Shown: positions 54,111 to 59,860 of the stretch, piece by piece
Numbering within the stretch: the first letter of the stretch is position 1
Layout of the letters: every line of letters starts with the position of its first letter
DNA from: Escherichia coli
GTDB taxonomy: Bacteria > Pseudomonadota > Gammaproteobacteria > Enterobacterales > Enterobacteriaceae
DNA length: 64,000 nucleotides
Reading direction: 5' to 3' (one strand)
Assembly (NCBI RefSeq): GCF_003334405.1
Contig: NZ_QOWM01000001.1
The notes under the pieces: model-generated
Told to the model about the DNA's origin: nothing
The model's input: only the letters and a program-made list of their open reading frames with translations
The model's database searches: none
Made by a program: the position numbers and the translations under genes

Positions 54111-54402
54111 TTTTTTTTAACTCTCACGCTTACCCTGAATATTCAGGGTAAGCAGTTTAGCTGCAATATATTAGTAAAGCTTATTACTGAGTTTGCGAAT
54201 AATAAAAAAAAGCAGTCTATATAATATCTCGATATTATTTTATTTATATTCATGCGTTGCATATGAAAGTTTATGCACCACAGCGAATATCTCTCCATTC
54301 TTAGTGATCTACCTCACCTTTTAAACGCGCTTGCCGAATTTTGTTATTTACTCTGACGAAAAATTGTCACGATACACGAAAGTTTTTCACAGGCGGCGAC
54401 TC

Positions 54403-55230: not shown

Positions 55231-55906
55231 TATTCGTGAAGCACACGCGCGCGGCGAACAGGCAATGTCCGTGGTTCTGCGCGCCAGCATTATTACCCCG
55301 GAAGCCCGTGAAGTGGCGGATCTACTGGGTTTTACCATCACCGAATGTGATGAATCGATCCCGGTAACGGCGTCCGTGCCCGCCAGCGTGCCAGCCGACA
55401 AAACCGAAAGCCAGCGCATCCGCGAAACCATCATTGCCCAGCTGCCGGAAGGCCAGTTTACCGAAAGCCTGGTCGCACAGCTGATGGAAAAAGTGATGAA
55501 GGAAAAACAGTCGCTGGAGCAGGGCGCAATGCAGCCGAGCTTCAAATCGGTGACCGGCAAAGGCGGCATCAAAGTGATTGATGGCAGTAGCGTCAAGTTT
55601 GGTCGTTTCGACGGCGCAGAGCCGCATTGCGTGGGCTTGACTGATCTTGTGACCGGAGACGACGGCAGCAGCATGGCCGCCGGTTTTATGCAGTGGGAGA
55701 ACGCATTCTTCCCGTGGACCCTGAACTACGACGAAATCGACATGGTGCTGGAAGGGGAGCTGCATGTTCGCCACGAAGGCCAAACCATGATCGCCAAAGC
55801 AGGCGACGTGATGTTTATCCCGAAAGGCTCCAGCATCGAATTTGGTACGACATCCAGCGTGAAATTCCTGTATGTCGCCTGGCCGGCTAACTGGCAATCC
55901 CTATGA
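55205..55906 (+). CDS. eutQ: Ethanolamine utilisation protein EutQ (cupin)
   Basis: 233 aa; start overlaps the eutP 3' end by 26 nt. Confidence 0.8.
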   Translation: MKKLITANDIREAHARGEQAMSVVLRASIITPEAREVADLLGFTITECDESIPVTASVPASVPADKTESQRIRETIIAQLPEGQFTESLVAQLMEKVMKEKQSLEQGAMQPSFKSVTGKGGIKVIDGSSVKFGRFDGAEPHCVGLTDLVTGDDGSSMAAGFMQWENAFFPWTLNYDEIDMVLEGELHVRHEGQTMIAKAGDVMFIPKGSSIEFGTTSSVKFLYVAWPANWQSL

Positions 55907-56706
55907 AAGATTTCATCACCGAAGCATGGCTAAGAGCGAACCATACGCTCAGCGAAGGCGCAGAGATCCATCTCCCTGCGGACAGTCGCCTGACGCCCTC
56001 TGCCCGGGAGTTGCTGGAAAGCCGCCATCTGCGCATCAAGTTTATTGACGAGCAGGGCCGCCTGTTTGTTGACGATGAACAGCAGCAGCCGCAGCCCGTT
56101 CATGGGCTGACCAGTAGCGATGAACATCCGCAGGCGTGCTGCGAACTGTGTCGCCAGCCGGTGGCAAAAAAGCCGGATACGCTGACTCACCTGTCGGCGG
56201 AAAAAATGGTCGCCAAAAGCGATCCGCGTCTGGGTTTTCGCGCGGTTCTCGACAGCACCATTGCGCTGGCAGTGTGGCTGCAAATTGAACTGGCGGAACC
56301 GTGGCAGCCGTGGCTGGCGGATATCCGTTCGCGTCTTGGCAACATTATGCGCGCCGATGCGCTGGGGGAACCGCTGGGCTGCCAGGCGATTGTCGGGCTT
56401 TCTGACGAAGATCTGCATCGGCTTTCTCATCAGCCGCTGCGCTATCTCGACCACGATCATCTGGTGCCGGAAGCCAGCCACGGGCGCGATGCTGCGTTGC
56501 TCAATCTGCTACGCACCAAAGTGCGGGAAACCGAAACCGTAGCGGCGCAGGTCTTTATCACCCGCAGCTTTGAAGTATTACGCCCGGACATTTTGCAGGC
56601 GCTGAACCGCCTTTCGAGCACGGTCTACGTGATGATGATCCTGAGCGTAACGAAGCAGCCGCTAACGGTGAAGCAGATCCAACAACGACTGGGGGAAACG
56701 CAATGA
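55903..56706 (+). CDS. eutT: Corrinoid adenosyltransferase EutT
   Basis: 267 aa; ATGA start/stop overlap with eutQ. Confidence 0.85.
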
Positions 56707-57719
56707 TTATTGAACGTTGTCGTGAACTGGCGTTGCGAGCGCCCGCCAGAGTGGTTTTTCCGGATGCGTTAGACCAACGTGTGCTGAAAGCCGCGCAATA
56801 TTTACATCAACAAGGTCTGGCAACGCCCATTCTGGTCGCCAATCCGTTTGAACTTCGTCAGTTTGCGCTCAGTCACGGCGTGGCGATGGACGGGCTACAG
56901 GTGATTGATCCGCATGGCAACCTCGCAATGCGGGAAGAATTTGCTCATCGCTGGCTGGCCCGCGCGGGCGAAAAAACGCCGCCGGATGCGCTGGAAAAAC
57001 TTACCGACCCTCTGATGTTCGCCGCAGCAATGGTCAGCGCCGGTAAAGCGGATGTCTGTATCGCGGGCAACCTCTCTTCCACGGCAAATGTGCTGCGTGC
57101 CGGATTACGCATTATCGGCTTGCAGCCAGGCTGTAAAACGCTCTCTTCCATTTTCCTGATGTTGCCACAGTACAGCGGCCCGGCGTTGGGCTTTGCCGAT
57201 TGCAGCGTGGTGCCACAGCCGACGGCGGCGCAGCTGGCGGATATCGCGCTTGCCAGTGCCGAAACCTGGCGCGCCATCACCGGAGAAGAGCCGCGCGTGG
57301 CGATGCTGTCGTTTTCCAGCAATGGTAGCGCCCGTCACCCCTGTGTTGCTAACGTCCAGCAGGCGACAGAAATCGTCCGTGAGCGCGCACCAAAGCTGGT
57401 GGTGGATGGCGAGTTACAGTTTGACGCCGCCTTCGTGCCGGAAGTGGCGGCGCAAAAAGCGCCTGCCAGCCCGCTACAGGGCAAGGCCAATGTGATGGTT
57501 TTTCCGTCGCTGGAAGCCGGAAATATTGGTTACAAAATCGCACAACGACTCGGCGGATATCGTGCCGTCGGGCCACTGATACAAGGACTTGCCGCGCCGA
57601 TGCACGATCTCTCTCGTGGTTGTAGCGTGCAGGAAATTATCGAGCTGGCGCTGGTGGCAGCTGTGCCGCGTCAGACAGAAGTGAACCGCGAAAGCAGTTT
57701 ACAAACACTGGTTGAATGA
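56703..57719 (+). CDS. eutD: Phosphotransacetylase EutD
   Basis: 338 aa; PTA family; ATGA overlap with eutT. Confidence 0.9.
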
Positions 57720-57757
57720 ACGGTCCCGTTCTGGACCCTGATAAAGAGGAAAGCACA

Positions 57758-58051
57758 ATGGAAGCATTAGGAATGATCGAAACCCGGGGCCTGGTTGCAC
57801 TGATTGAGGCTTCTGACGCGATGGTGAAAGCTGCGCGCGTCAAGCTGGTTGGTGTTAAGCAGATTGGCGGCGGCCTGTGTACTGCCATGGTTCGTGGTGA
57901 TGTTGCAGCCTGTAAAGCCGCGACCGATGCAGGTGCCGCAGCGGCACAGCGTATCGGCGAGCTGGTATCTGTACACGTTATCCCGCGTCCGCACGGCGAC
58001 CTGGAAGAAGTCTTCCCGATCGGCCTGAAAGGCGATAGCAGCAACCTGTAA
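57758..58051 (+). CDS. eutM: Microcompartment major shell protein EutM (BMC hexamer)
   Basis: 97 aa from the ATG at 57758 ([26 protein letters not shown]); canonical BMC domain. Confidence 0.9.
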
Positions 58052-58157
58052 TCACCCTGTGTGACGTCGATTCGGGCGTCACGCTCTCTCCTTTTTCATT
58101 TTACCTTCTGCGGAGGGTAGGGGGAGCTTTTACCTGAAATACGCCACGGAGGCGGGT

Positions 58158-58445
58158 ATGAAACTGGCAGTCGTCACTGGACAAATTGTTTGTACCGTAC
58201 GCCATCACGGACTGGCGCATGACAAATTGCTGATGGTGGAAATGATTGATCCACAAGGTAATCCTGACGGGCAATGCGCCGTCGCCATCGACAATATTGG
58301 CGCGGGAACCGGGGAGTGGGTGTTACTGGTGAGTGGCAGTTCCGCCCGCCAGGCGCATAAAAGCGAAACGTCACCGGTCGATCTGTGCGTGATTGGCATT
58401 GTCGATGAGGTGGTGTCTGGCGGTCAGGTAATTTTCCACAAATAA
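58158..58445 (+). CDS. eutN: Microcompartment vertex protein EutN (EutN/CcmL family)
   Basis: 95 aa (MKLAVVTGQIVCTVRHHGL). Confidence 0.9.
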   Translation: MKLAVVTGQIVCTVRHHGLAHDKLLMVEMIDPQGNPDGQCAVAIDNIGAGTGEWVLLVSGSSARQAHKSETSPVDLCVIGIVDEVVSGGQVIFHK

Positions 58446-58456
58446 GGCAGAACATC

Positions 58457-59860
58457 ATGAATCAACAGGATATTGAACAGGTGGTGAAAGCGGTACTGCT
58501 GAAAATGCAAAGCAGTGACACGCCGTCCGCCGCCGTTCATGAGATGGGCGTTTTCGCGTCCCTGGATGACGCCGTTGCGGCAGCCAAAGTCGCCCAGCAA
58601 GGGTTAAAAAGCGTGGCAATGCGCCAGTTAGCCATTGCTGCCATTCGTGAAGCAGGCGAAAAACACGCCAGAGATTTAGCGGAACTTGCCGTCAGTGAAA
58701 CCGGCATGGGGCGCGTTGAAGATAAATTTGCAAAAAACGTCGCTCAGGCGCGCGGCACACCAGGCGTTGAGTGCCTCTCTCCGCAAGTGCTGACTGGCGA
58801 CAACGGCCTGACCCTAATTGAAAACGCACCCTGGGGCGTGGTGGCTTCGGTGACGCCTTCCACTAACCCGGCGGCAACCGTAATTAACAACGCCATCAGC
58901 CTGATTGCCGCGGGCAACAGCGTCATTTTTGCCCCGCATCCGGCGGCGAAAAAAGTCTCCCAGCGGGCGATTACGCTGCTCAACCAGGCGATTGTTGCCG
59001 CAGGTGGGCCGGAAAACTTACTGGTTACTGTGGCAAATCCGGATATCGAAACCGCGCAACGCTTGTTCAAGTTTCCGGGTATCGGCCTGCTGGTGGTAAC
59101 CGGCGGCGAAGCGGTAGTAGAAGCGGCGCGTAAACACACCAATAAACGTCTGATTGCCGCAGGCGCTGGCAACCCGCCGGTAGTGGTGGATGAAACCGCC
59201 GACCTCGCCCGTGCCGCTCAGTCCATCGTCAAAGGCGCTTCTTTCGATAACAACATCATTTGTGCCGACGAAAAGGTACTGATTGTTGTTGATAGCGTAG
59301 CCGATGAACTGATGCGTCTGATGGAAGGCCAGCACGCGGTGAAACTGACCGCAGAACAGGCGCAGCAGCTGCAACCGGTGTTGCTGAAAAATATCGACGA
59401 GCGCGGAAAAGGCACCGTCAGCCGTGACTGGGTTGGTCGCGACGCAGGCAAAATCGCGGCGGCAATCGGCCTTAAAGTTCCGCAAGAAACGCGCCTGCTG
59501 TTTGTGGAAACCACCGCAGAACATCCGTTTGCCGTGACTGAACTGATGATGCCGGTGTTGCCCGTCGTGCGCGTCGCCAACGTGGCGGATGCCATTGCGC
59601 TAGCGGTGAAACTGGAAGGCGGTTGCCACCACACGGCGGCAATGCACTCGCGCAACATCGAAAACATGAACCAGATGGCGAATGCTATTGATACCAGCAT
59701 TTTCGTTAAGAACGGACCGTGCATTGCCGGGCTGGGGCTGGGCGGGGAAGGCTGGACCACCATGACCATCACCACGCCAACCGGTGAAGGGGTAACCAGC
59801 GCGCGTACGTTTGTCCGTCTGCGTCGCTGTGTATTAGTCGATGCGTTTCGCATTGTTTAA
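58457..59860 (+). CDS. eutE: CoA-acylating acetaldehyde dehydrogenase EutE
   Basis: 467 aa; aldehyde-dehydrogenase family. Confidence 0.9.
   Translation: MNQQDIEQVVKAVLLKMQSSDTPSAAVHEMGVFASLDDAVAAAKVAQQGLKSVAMRQLAIAAIREAGEKHARDLAELAVSETGMGRVEDKFAKNVAQARGTPGVECLSPQVLTGDNGLTLIENAPWGVVASVTPSTNPAATVINNAISLIAAGNSVIFAPHPAAKKVSQRAITLLNQAIVAAGGPENLLVTVANPDIETAQRLFKFPGIGLLVVTGGEAVVEAARKHTNKRLIAAGAGNPPVVVDETADLARAAQSIVKGASFDNNIICADEKVLIVVDSVADELMRLMEGQHAVKLTAEQAQQLQPVLLKNIDERGKGTVSRDWVGRDAGKIAAAIGLKVPQETRLLFVETTAEHPFAVTELMMPVLPVVRVANVADAIALAVKLEGGCHHTAAMHSRNIENMNQMANAIDTSIFVKNGPCIAGLGLGGEGWTTMTITTPTGEGVTSARTFVRLRRCVLVDAFRIV

Follow-up and report, generated by a model that had tools for sequence, protein, structure and literature searches.

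The window analysed here is a 64,000-nt stretch of Escherichia coli DNA (contig NZ_QOWM01000001.1 of assembly GCF_003334405.1), and its plus strand carries the eut operon of this bacterium in the order eutS-P-Q-T-D-M-N-E-J-G-H-A-B-C-L. We examined the spacer between two shell genes of this operon. The upstream gene, eutM (57758-58051, plus strand), encodes the major BMC-H shell protein of 97 amino acids and ends with the stop codon TAA at 58049-58051; the downstream gene, eutN (58158-58445, plus strand), encodes the BMC-P vertex protein of 95 amino acids. Both genes are in the list of open reading frames (ORFs). The 730 bp that span the site are 100% identical to many E. coli chromosomes, on which RefSeq labels pta (eutD), eutM (WP_000387713.1), and eutN. 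Microcompartment shells need far more of the hexamer EutM than of the vertex pentamer EutN, and the original prediction for this DNA was that a hairpin followed by a T-run in the eutM-eutN gap acts as a partial terminator or RNA processing site that favors EutM. We found that the gap encodes a conserved, sense-strand RNA structure and that its features are compatible with a role at the 3' end of the upstream mRNA.

The gap is 106 bp long (58052-58157, plus strand), as had been predicted. Most of the other junctions in the operon were said to be tight or overlapping, and the junction lengths bear this out. In nucleotides they are S-P 12, P-Q -26, Q-T -4, T-D -4, D-M 38, M-N 106, N-E 11, E-J 10, J-G -11, G-H 216, H-A -4, A-B 11, B-C 20, and C-L 9, so that all are between -26 and 20 nt except D-M, M-N, and G-H. 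The only gap longer than that between eutM and eutN, eutG-eutH, is a bacterial interspersed mosaic element (BIME) with four repetitive extragenic palindromic (REP) sequences. RefSeq has no feature annotated under the eutM-eutN spacer, and Rfam 15 covariance models gave no match on either strand of 57500-58700 at E values up to 10. No description of the eutM-eutN junction was found in the full-text literature that was covered; this did not include the Salmonella eut paper of Kofoid et al. (1999), where a mention of REPs is possible. We rejected a small ORF inside the gap because there is no ATG, GTG, or TTG suitably spaced after the internal GGAGG-like motifs, and the minus-strand ORF at 58101-58274 is merely a mechanical ORF that overlaps eutN. 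A promoter scan of both strands of the gap gave no sigma-70-like site. The minus-strand TAAAAT, which is the complement of a T-run, was rejected as a promoter because it has no usable -35 element and is not kept in Citrobacter or Klebsiella spallanzanii.

The first structure in the spacer is a hairpin (hairpin 1; 58059-58084, plus strand) that starts 7 nt past the eutM stop codon in E. coli. The GTGACG-N10-CGTCAC hairpin that had been proposed is present as stated at 58061-58082, with its arms at 58061-58066 and 58077-58082 (core GTGACGUC/GGGCGUCAC), and two inner pairs (U67.G76 and C68-G75) plus two outer pairs (G59-C84 and U60.G83) extend the stem to 10 bp. With 6 G-C pairs, the 6-nt loop GAUUCG, and a folding energy of -16.2 kcal/mol, it has the stem-loop of an intrinsic terminator, for which a G+C-rich stem of approximately 5-14 bp and a loop of 3-8 nt are typical. 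It is also a conserved sense-strand stem-loop 3' of the more abundant cistron, which is the structure of the intercistronic mRNA-stabilizing class. Hairpin 1 forms an independent stem-loop in the minimum free energy (MFE) and centroid folds of the E. coli sequence. There are 11 perfect-stem hairpins of -16 kcal/mol or lower on the plus strand of the window, so approximately 0.02 are expected per 106 nt. The pattern GTGACGYC-N4-24-GRCGTCAC was seen at a single place in the 64 kb and was absent from all 100 shuffles. Compared with dinucleotide shuffles, folding of the gap alone gave z = -3.4 and folding of a 131-nt piece gave z = -2.0. The antisense strand folds no better than its shuffles (z = -0.63), and an antisense-strand structure was rejected. 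Across 5408 E. coli genomes the spacer was found at one place per genome, even at E ≤ 10; being single-copy, it was rejected as one of a family of dispersed repeats. We also rejected a CRP-type operator (TGTGA...TCACA) since the spacing of the arms is 14 nt rather than 6 nt. This spacing shifts by 16 nt between species, which excludes any dimeric DNA site of fixed spacing.

To examine conservation, one genome per species (GTDB) was scanned with EutN, which gave 48 loci, and the region from the end of eutM across the gap into the beginning of eutN was aligned for 39 enterobacterial species. In all 39 the two genes are kept apart by 52-144 nt, and a tight junction occurs in none of them. Two classes of spacer can be distinguished, A with 24 species and B with 15. 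Class A spans six genera and contains four Escherichia species or clades, the Citrobacter freundii complex together with the R56/NCU1/Awk4 group, K. spallanzanii, four Buttiauxella, Entomohabitans, and Yokenella. All 24 species share an RTGACGYC(N)-loop-(N)GRCGTCAY hairpin located 6-9 nt past the eutM stop, and it is also present in the MFE folds of ten class-A species folded singly. The loops are 4-20 nt long and unrelated in sequence while the stem is intact. Among ten representative species, mean pairwise identity is 94% for the core stem of hairpin 1 and 96% for eutM codon positions 1 and 2, compared with 56% for eutM third positions, 46% for the columns adjacent to the loop, and 32% for the 9-nt spacer before the hairpin. 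Two stem positions vary and both retain pairing: at pair 7 there are 9 sequences with C-G, 6 with U.G, and 5 with U-A, and at pair 1 Yokenella has A-U where all others have G-C. Within E. coli, the single-nucleotide polymorphism G58076A converts a U.G pair of hairpin 1 to U-A and keeps the stem, and further sampled variants alter the loop. Hairpin 1 is strongly supported by these observations.

Downstream of this hairpin is CTCTCTCCTTTTTCATTTT (58084-58102), which includes a pyrimidine- and T-rich tract (58085-58102, plus strand; UCUCUCCUUUUUCAUUUU) that is free of G and rich in C, with T-runs at 58092-58096 and 58099-58102; the 30-nt window at 58080 contains 11 C and 1 G. The predicted T-run after the hairpin is thus present, but it does not adjoin the stem. 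The U5 run begins 8 nt past the extended stem of hairpin 1 and is predicted to be within a second hairpin. Hairpin 2 (58086-58126, plus strand), which is seen in the MFE and centroid folds, has an inner helix, UACCUUC/GAGGGUA (58102-58108 with 58113-58119, loop UGCG), and a putative outer helix, CUCUCCU/GGGGGAG (58086-58092 with 58120-58126). The T-runs are predicted to be in its internal loop and 5' arm. Beyond hairpin 2 there is a U-rich linker (58128-58140, plus strand; UUUUACCUGAAAU) that is conserved, with 80% identity across class-A species, and predicted to be single-stranded. The octamer TACCTGAA at 58131-58138 is 26-27 nt from the eutN ATG in 22 of the 24 class-A species, and it is missing from REP-bearing species. 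RNase E reportedly prefers R-N/W-U-U (slash denoting the cut), a preference credited to Chao et al. in 2017, and the sequence G-C/UUU at 58126-58130 is compatible with this.

The last element before eutN is its ribosome-binding region (58142-58155, plus strand), in which MFE folds place the Shine-Dalgarno (SD) sequence GGAGG (58148-58152) inside a small CGCC/GGCG hairpin. The GGAG of this SD is invariant in all 39 species and the neighboring bases are nearly so, with two species differing. As a separate observation, the near-invariant SD region (CGGAGGCG) is predicted to fold with GGA in the loop of the small hairpin, and a second GGA occurs in hairpin 2 (58113-58117), approximately 35 nt upstream of the eutN SD. 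This pair resembles a two-site CsrA target. A CsrA-like arrangement of this sort, read from the sequence, could help explain why EutN is approximately 1% of EutM despite a strong SD.

We next considered how well the whole structure is maintained. In the alignment, in which some rows of Buttiauxella and Entomohabitans are poorly aligned over hairpin 2, 88.7% of cells pair as proposed versus 42-58% when the partners are slid. Eleven pairs have double-sided changes, and none of 500 shuffles reached the observed score. Hairpin 2 was therefore recounted on 15 well-aligned sequences. Results from this showed that in the R56 group and in K. spallanzanii, two independent lineages, A-U has become G-C in the inner helix, with further changes of C-G to U-A, C-G to U.G, and U.G to C-G. 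The outer helix has no variation between these species, and in E. coli it is broken by C58091A, found in the O157:H7 lineage, and by G58124C. C58091A is also in the T-rich tract and T58099G is within the second T-run, so E. coli strains differ in this tract. The second hairpin of Buttiauxella and Entomohabitans is a different one, and Yokenella lacks a hairpin beyond hairpin 1. Support is good for the inner helix of hairpin 2 and weak for its outer helix, and the T-runs are weakly constrained. Together, these data indicate that the hairpin structure is real and under selection. One E. coli strain, 90-1 (NZ_CP050047.1), carries IS911 in the spacer (locus L055, 2599-3767; approximately 58130 in the window) between hairpin 2 and the eutN ribosome-binding site. 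This insertion cuts off eutN and all downstream genes from the operon promoter.

The 15 class-B species are Salmonella enterica subspecies arizonae and diarizonae, four Klebsiella, Citrobacter koseri, C. amalonaticus, C. sedlakii, and members of Pluralibacter, Pseudocitrobacter, and Intestinirhabdus. They do not have hairpin 1 and instead have one or two enterobacterial REP-type palindromes in the gap. The gaps of 11 of these species match REP loci of the window at approximately 12200, 14600, 37200, 48400-48500, and 62000; those of two Pseudocitrobacter, K. oxytoca, and Intestinirhabdus have no match in the window. For the class-A gaps of Escherichia, Citrobacter, and K. spallanzanii, the only match in the window is the eutM-eutN site itself, and for those of Buttiauxella, Entomohabitans, and Yokenella nothing in the window matched. 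An element of the REP/BIME type is an imperfect palindrome of approximately 35 nt with the consensus GCCGGATG...CTTATCCGGCCTAC, a GTAG/CTAC end, and numerous copies dispersed over the genome. The hairpin of E. coli has neither the consensus nor the GTAG/CTAC tag and occurs once per genome, and it was rejected as a REP or BIME. The RepRanger supplement has no eut entries. We also observed that K. spallanzanii combines an Escherichia-type spacer with an Escherichia-type EutM C terminus (SSNL) and that other Klebsiella combine REPs with an SNI ending. This hints, from sequence, at horizontal replacement of the eut region in K. spallanzanii.

Outside of these species, three distant proteobacteria with eutM directly before eutN (Pseudomonas nitroreducens, a Rhodocyclaceae metagenome-assembled genome, and Pseudothauera) have G+C-rich spacers of 131-211 nt. 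Loci from Granulosicoccaceae, Chromatiales, and Clostridiales have eutN homologues without an upstream eutM and were uninformative. In 41 of the 42 species the spacer folds better than its own shuffles, and the median z is approximately -1.9. A structured spacer after eutM is universal among the species examined, and the sequence family that provides it is interchangeable. REPs are established stabilizers of mRNA and also attenuators. REPs and other intercistronic stem-loops stabilize upstream mRNA, as at malE-malF (Newbury et al., 1987; Khemici and Carpousis, 2004; both as cited in PMC12306157).

Published RNA levels bear on this junction. RNA sequencing of E. coli LF82 in minimal medium gave the following reads per kilobase per million (RPKM): eutS 20, eutP 39, eutQ 24, eutT 13, eutD 108, eutM 55, eutN 5, eutE 14, eutJ 13, eutG 35, eutH 106, eutA 36, eutB 61, eutC 47, eutL 30, eutK 37, and eutR 142 (PMC6379400, Table 1). 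With bile salts, which induce eut, the values were eutS 76, eutP 166, eutQ 192, eutT 83, eutD 357, eutM 177, eutN 62, eutE 149, eutJ 147, eutG 168, eutH 514, eutA 223, eutB 358, eutC 286, eutL 126, eutK 94, and eutR 308 (PMC6379400). From eutM to eutN this is a drop of 11-fold in uninduced and 2.9-fold in induced cells, both taken from one gene-level, unstranded table. These numbers are suggestive of an RNA segment enriched for eutD and eutM that ends at the eutM-eutN gap. The pattern also appears to fit a stable, hairpin-bounded upstream fragment better than a terminator that acts on all transcripts because induced eutE, eutJ, and eutG RNAs are back at approximately the level of eutM.

Term-seq data from MG1655 grown in LB or M63 glucose do not list sense 3' ends at eutM or eutN (Adams et al., 2021); eut is uninduced under those conditions, so this data set is uninformative on the sense strand. 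The TERMITe supplements have no eutM or eutN entry, and the available Term-seq sets were made without eut induction. The MG1655 data do contain a low-count antisense 3' end (approximately 946 reads) in the 3' part of eutM at MG1655 position 2572217 (+), which corresponds to approximately 57981-57991 on the minus strand of the window (Adams et al., 2021). With eut uninduced, some antisense transcripts therefore run through the gap and the complement of hairpin 1. No conserved antisense promoter was seen for RNA across the gap.

Protein levels give a different picture of where the EutM:EutN ratio is set. Label-free proteomics of W3110 grown on ethanolamine plus B12 gave relative abundances of EutQ 100, EutM 96, EutL 39, EutB 37, EutE 27, EutC 24, EutS 11, EutD 10, EutK 8, EutG 7, EutP 7, and EutN 1 (PMC11334477). 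EutE, which is encoded 11 nt after eutN, is thus 27-fold more abundant than EutN. Because of this, the EutM:EutN ratio does not come from an mRNA step at the junction and must be mainly translational, through gene-specific translation of eutN. The idea that the junction element sets the shell-to-vertex stoichiometry is not borne out by these data, since EutM:EutN:EutE of 96:1:27 points to translation of eutN. The other part of the original prediction, that partial termination or processing leaves more eutM than downstream RNA, fared better. The lower eutN RNA, the conserved sense-strand structure, and the REPs of sister species all agree with an RNA processing site or a differential mRNA level, which is a reasonable reading; a canonical terminator does not stand.

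We consider the spacer to be a conserved, non-REP RNA module of the sense strand that would consist of hairpin 1, the pyrimidine- and U-rich tract, hairpin 2, and the U-rich linker before the eutN ribosome-binding site, with a job that is most likely post-transcriptional. The explanation that we favor, to which we give about an even chance, is that the spacer hairpins create the 3' end of the upstream eutD-eutM mRNA segment or shield it. The RNA would be cut endonucleolytically in single-stranded U-rich segments, for which 58126-58130 is the candidate RNase E site, and/or transcription might occasionally terminate, in a leaky manner, in the pyrimidine tract. Hairpins 1 and 2 would then act as a barrier to 3'-to-5' exonucleases, the segment bearing eutM would outlive the eutN side, and EutM yield would rise. 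A protective role is supported by the presence of REPs, the classical elements with that job, in the same gap of Salmonella, Klebsiella, and several Citrobacter. For stoichiometry, the result is probably that eutM mRNA is modestly boosted or buffered, which is not the main determinant of the 100:1 ratio.

Several points weigh against this explanation. The 3' ends, half-lives, and nuclease action at this site are ones that we infer. The LF82 table is unstranded, gene-level, and a single data set, and eutN is below both of its neighbors in it, which may be a local or short-gene effect. Induced eutE (149), eutJ (147), and eutG (168) are close to eutM (177), so net polarity is small. Protein levels are non-monotonic along the operon (EutS 11, EutP 7, EutQ 100, EutD 10, EutM 96, EutN 1, EutE 27, EutB 37, and EutL 39); translation therefore dominates, and the part of the element in stoichiometry may be minor. 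The sequence of the hairpin 1 stem, beyond mere pairing, is near-invariant, which hints at recognition of the sequence itself; a plain exonuclease barrier would not require this. Finally, a hairpin 7 nt past the stop codon could interfere with termination of eutM translation, as closely placed REPs do, and result in less EutM.

An alternative that we regard as unlikely is that hairpin 1 and the UCUCUCCUUUUU tract are a leaky intrinsic (Rho-independent) terminator that frees some polymerases, so that eutS-eutM RNA exceeds eutN-eutR RNA. The GC-rich 10-bp stem, its folding energy, and the drop in RNA from eutM to eutN in LF82 are in keeping with this idea. A lax consensus scan lists the hairpin 1 site as terminator-like, but the scan is no richer than shuffled sequence (20 sites found versus 17.2 expected). 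The tail, UCUCUCCUUUUUCAU (UCUCUCCU and then UUUU), has a U-score of the d'Aubenton-Carafa type of 2.0, which is at the 95th percentile of 15-mers in the window. However, this is half of the 4.2 obtained for the bamC terminator in the window, and with U at 4 of its first 8 bases and C interruptions the tail is not the U tract of an intrinsic terminator, which is unbroken or almost so over the first 8-9 nt 3' of the stem. In Buttiauxella the tail is better, with UUUCUUU right after the stem and scores of 2.2-3.6, and a pyrimidine tract follows the stem in 23 of the 24 class-A species. By contrast, Yokenella keeps the hairpin without a U tract, REP-bearing species have no U tract, the T-runs are polymorphic in E. 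coli, and hairpin 2 is predicted to take up the tract there in its own pairing. Read-through is needed by 12 genes farther downstream, eutBC and eutR among them, and with induced eutE, eutJ, and eutG RNA close to eutM RNA any termination of induced transcripts must be small. The conserved features do not point to a weak, leaky terminator. Rho loading on the G-free, C-rich tract is conceivable as a route to attenuation, and Rho loading has been reported for BIMEs (Espeli et al., 2001, as cited in PMC12306157).

The EutM:EutN ratio of approximately 100:1 with EutE at 27 from a gene only 11 nt after eutN, which makes the ratio translational, brings up a further alternative. The long structured spacer could uncouple eutN from the heavily translated eutM and prevent re-initiation at eutN, with the SD mini-hairpin and hairpin 2 holding eutN translation low and the hairpin 6-9 nt past the stop possibly modulating termination or recycling on eutM. 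We think this somewhat less probable than leaky termination. The other eut junctions, which need no such contrast, are tight or overlapping, and all 42 species have a spacer (52-211 nt), regardless of the sequence family to which it belongs. The distance from the stop codon to the hairpin is fixed. In addition, the eutN SD is in a conserved small hairpin, and in Buttiauxella a long predicted helix hides it. However, distance alone uncouples translation and a 94%-identical stem is not needed for that. The eutN SD (GGAGG with 5-nt spacing) is intrinsically strong and the local hairpin weak, with 3-4 bp.

It is also doubtful that the class-A spacer is a dedicated cis-regulatory RNA in which the near-invariant stem of hairpin 1, hairpin 2, the UACCUGAA box 26-27 nt from the eutN AUG, and the SD mini-hairpin let a trans-acting protein or small RNA set EutM:EutN at approximately 100:1. 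If this were true, the shell-to-vertex stoichiometry would be actively regulated and not hard-wired. Slightly more doubtful is that the RTGACGYC/GRCGTCAY stem, as RNA or as a single-stranded DNA hairpin, is recognized by a dedicated protein or RNA that regulates the operon. The stem is near-invariant from Escherichia to Buttiauxella and Entomohabitans at distances where hairpin 2 drifts and covaries, and another conserved box (TACCTGAA) keeps a constant distance to the eutN ATG. Yet stems evolve slowly anyway since two changes are needed, REP-bearing species do without the motif, no candidate factor is known, Rfam gave no match, and the variable loop length excludes a classical dimeric DNA operator. 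That the spacer merely tolerates the landing of mobile palindromes and that the E. coli hairpins are a decayed, functionless remnant fits the several REP arrangements in 15 species and the tolerated IS911 insertion in strain 90-1, but it is very improbable for a single-copy hairpin without REP similarity whose stem is conserved like non-synonymous sites over six genera, with compensatory changes, and whose E. coli polymorphisms spare or strengthen it.

Intercistronic stem-loops that tune relative expression in operons have been known since the 1980s. The element described here is of this known kind; as an instance, the hairpin pair, its conservation over six genera, and its replacement by REPs appear to be undescribed. 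It changes no general principle and most likely represents ordinary operon fine-tuning, not a textbook terminator. It does offer a clean natural case of one functional slot that is filled by a locus-specific hairpin in some species and by mobile REP palindromes in others. Transplanted eut or pdu operons often yield malformed shells when the ratios are off, and a conserved structured spacer exactly at the EutM/EutN boundary is a specific non-coding piece to keep or tune in engineered constructs.

Three other places in the operon region showed features of note. From eutT (55903-56706) to eutD, the first gene of the eutD-eutM stretch (56703-58051), RPKM rises 4-8-fold in LF82 (13 to 108 and 83 to 357), which suggests either an internal promoter or a stable processed eutD-eutM RNA. 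A consensus scan upstream of eutD found no sigma-70-like site. In the 216-bp eutG-eutH gap (61885-62100), the four REP palindromes are arranged as two tandem copies of approximately 100 bp (z = -3.2), and eutH RPKM is approximately threefold higher than that of eutG in both LF82 conditions (106 versus 35 and 514 versus 168). This suggests a second boundary or an internal promoter. Lastly, the maeB-eutS intergenic region has a perfect 11-bp palindrome at 54128-54153 (GCTTACCCTGAATATTCAGGGTAAGC; -18 kcal/mol) with no T tract after it; the palindrome may mark where the maeB transcript ends or serve as a regulatory site ahead of the eut promoter.

The antiterminator sites bound by the ANTAR protein EutV in eut operons of Firmicutes are similar in having two adjacent hairpins in a eut operon beside a U-rich tract. 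According to what Ramesh et al. are said to have described in 2012, an ANTAR substrate has two hexaloop hairpins with conserved loop positions, an overlapping terminator, and an ANTAR regulator in the locus. By contrast, the loop of hairpin 1 is 4-20 nt long and not conserved, that of hairpin 2 is 4 nt, the conserved hexaloop pattern is absent, and there is no Rfam match. The operon has eutR and neither eutV nor eutW, and we rejected the spacer as an ANTAR substrate. Operon-internal partial terminators such as rpsU-dnaG T1, the rplL-rpoB attenuator, and gltI-sroC-gltJKL also have a hairpin with a pyrimidine- or U-rich stretch between genes of high and low expression where read-through is needed. 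The eut spacer differs from these in that its U tract is interrupted and displaced from the stem (2.0 versus 4.2) and that induced downstream RNA is approximately equal to eutM RNA.

Further parallels are the hairpins that give segmental stability to Rhodobacter pufBA-LMX and E. coli papB-papA mRNA. In these, as in eut, a structural cistron that is needed in excess is bounded 3' by stem-loops with AU-rich, single-stranded processing sequence nearby. Half-lives have been measured and cleavage sites mapped for puf and pap, whereas we infer both for eut. The REP and BIME stabilizers at malE-malF and hisJ-hisQ (Newbury, Higgins et al., 1987) share with the eut hairpin the position of a stable stem-loop directly 3' of the most abundant cistron of an operon, and a block to 3' exonucleases with a higher ratio of upstream to downstream mRNA would be expected for the eut hairpin too. 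Unlike those elements, the eut hairpin is locus-specific, is inherited vertically across genera, has no REP consensus, and occurs once per genome. Genuine REPs fill the orthologous gap in Salmonella, Klebsiella, and C. koseri and C. amalonaticus.

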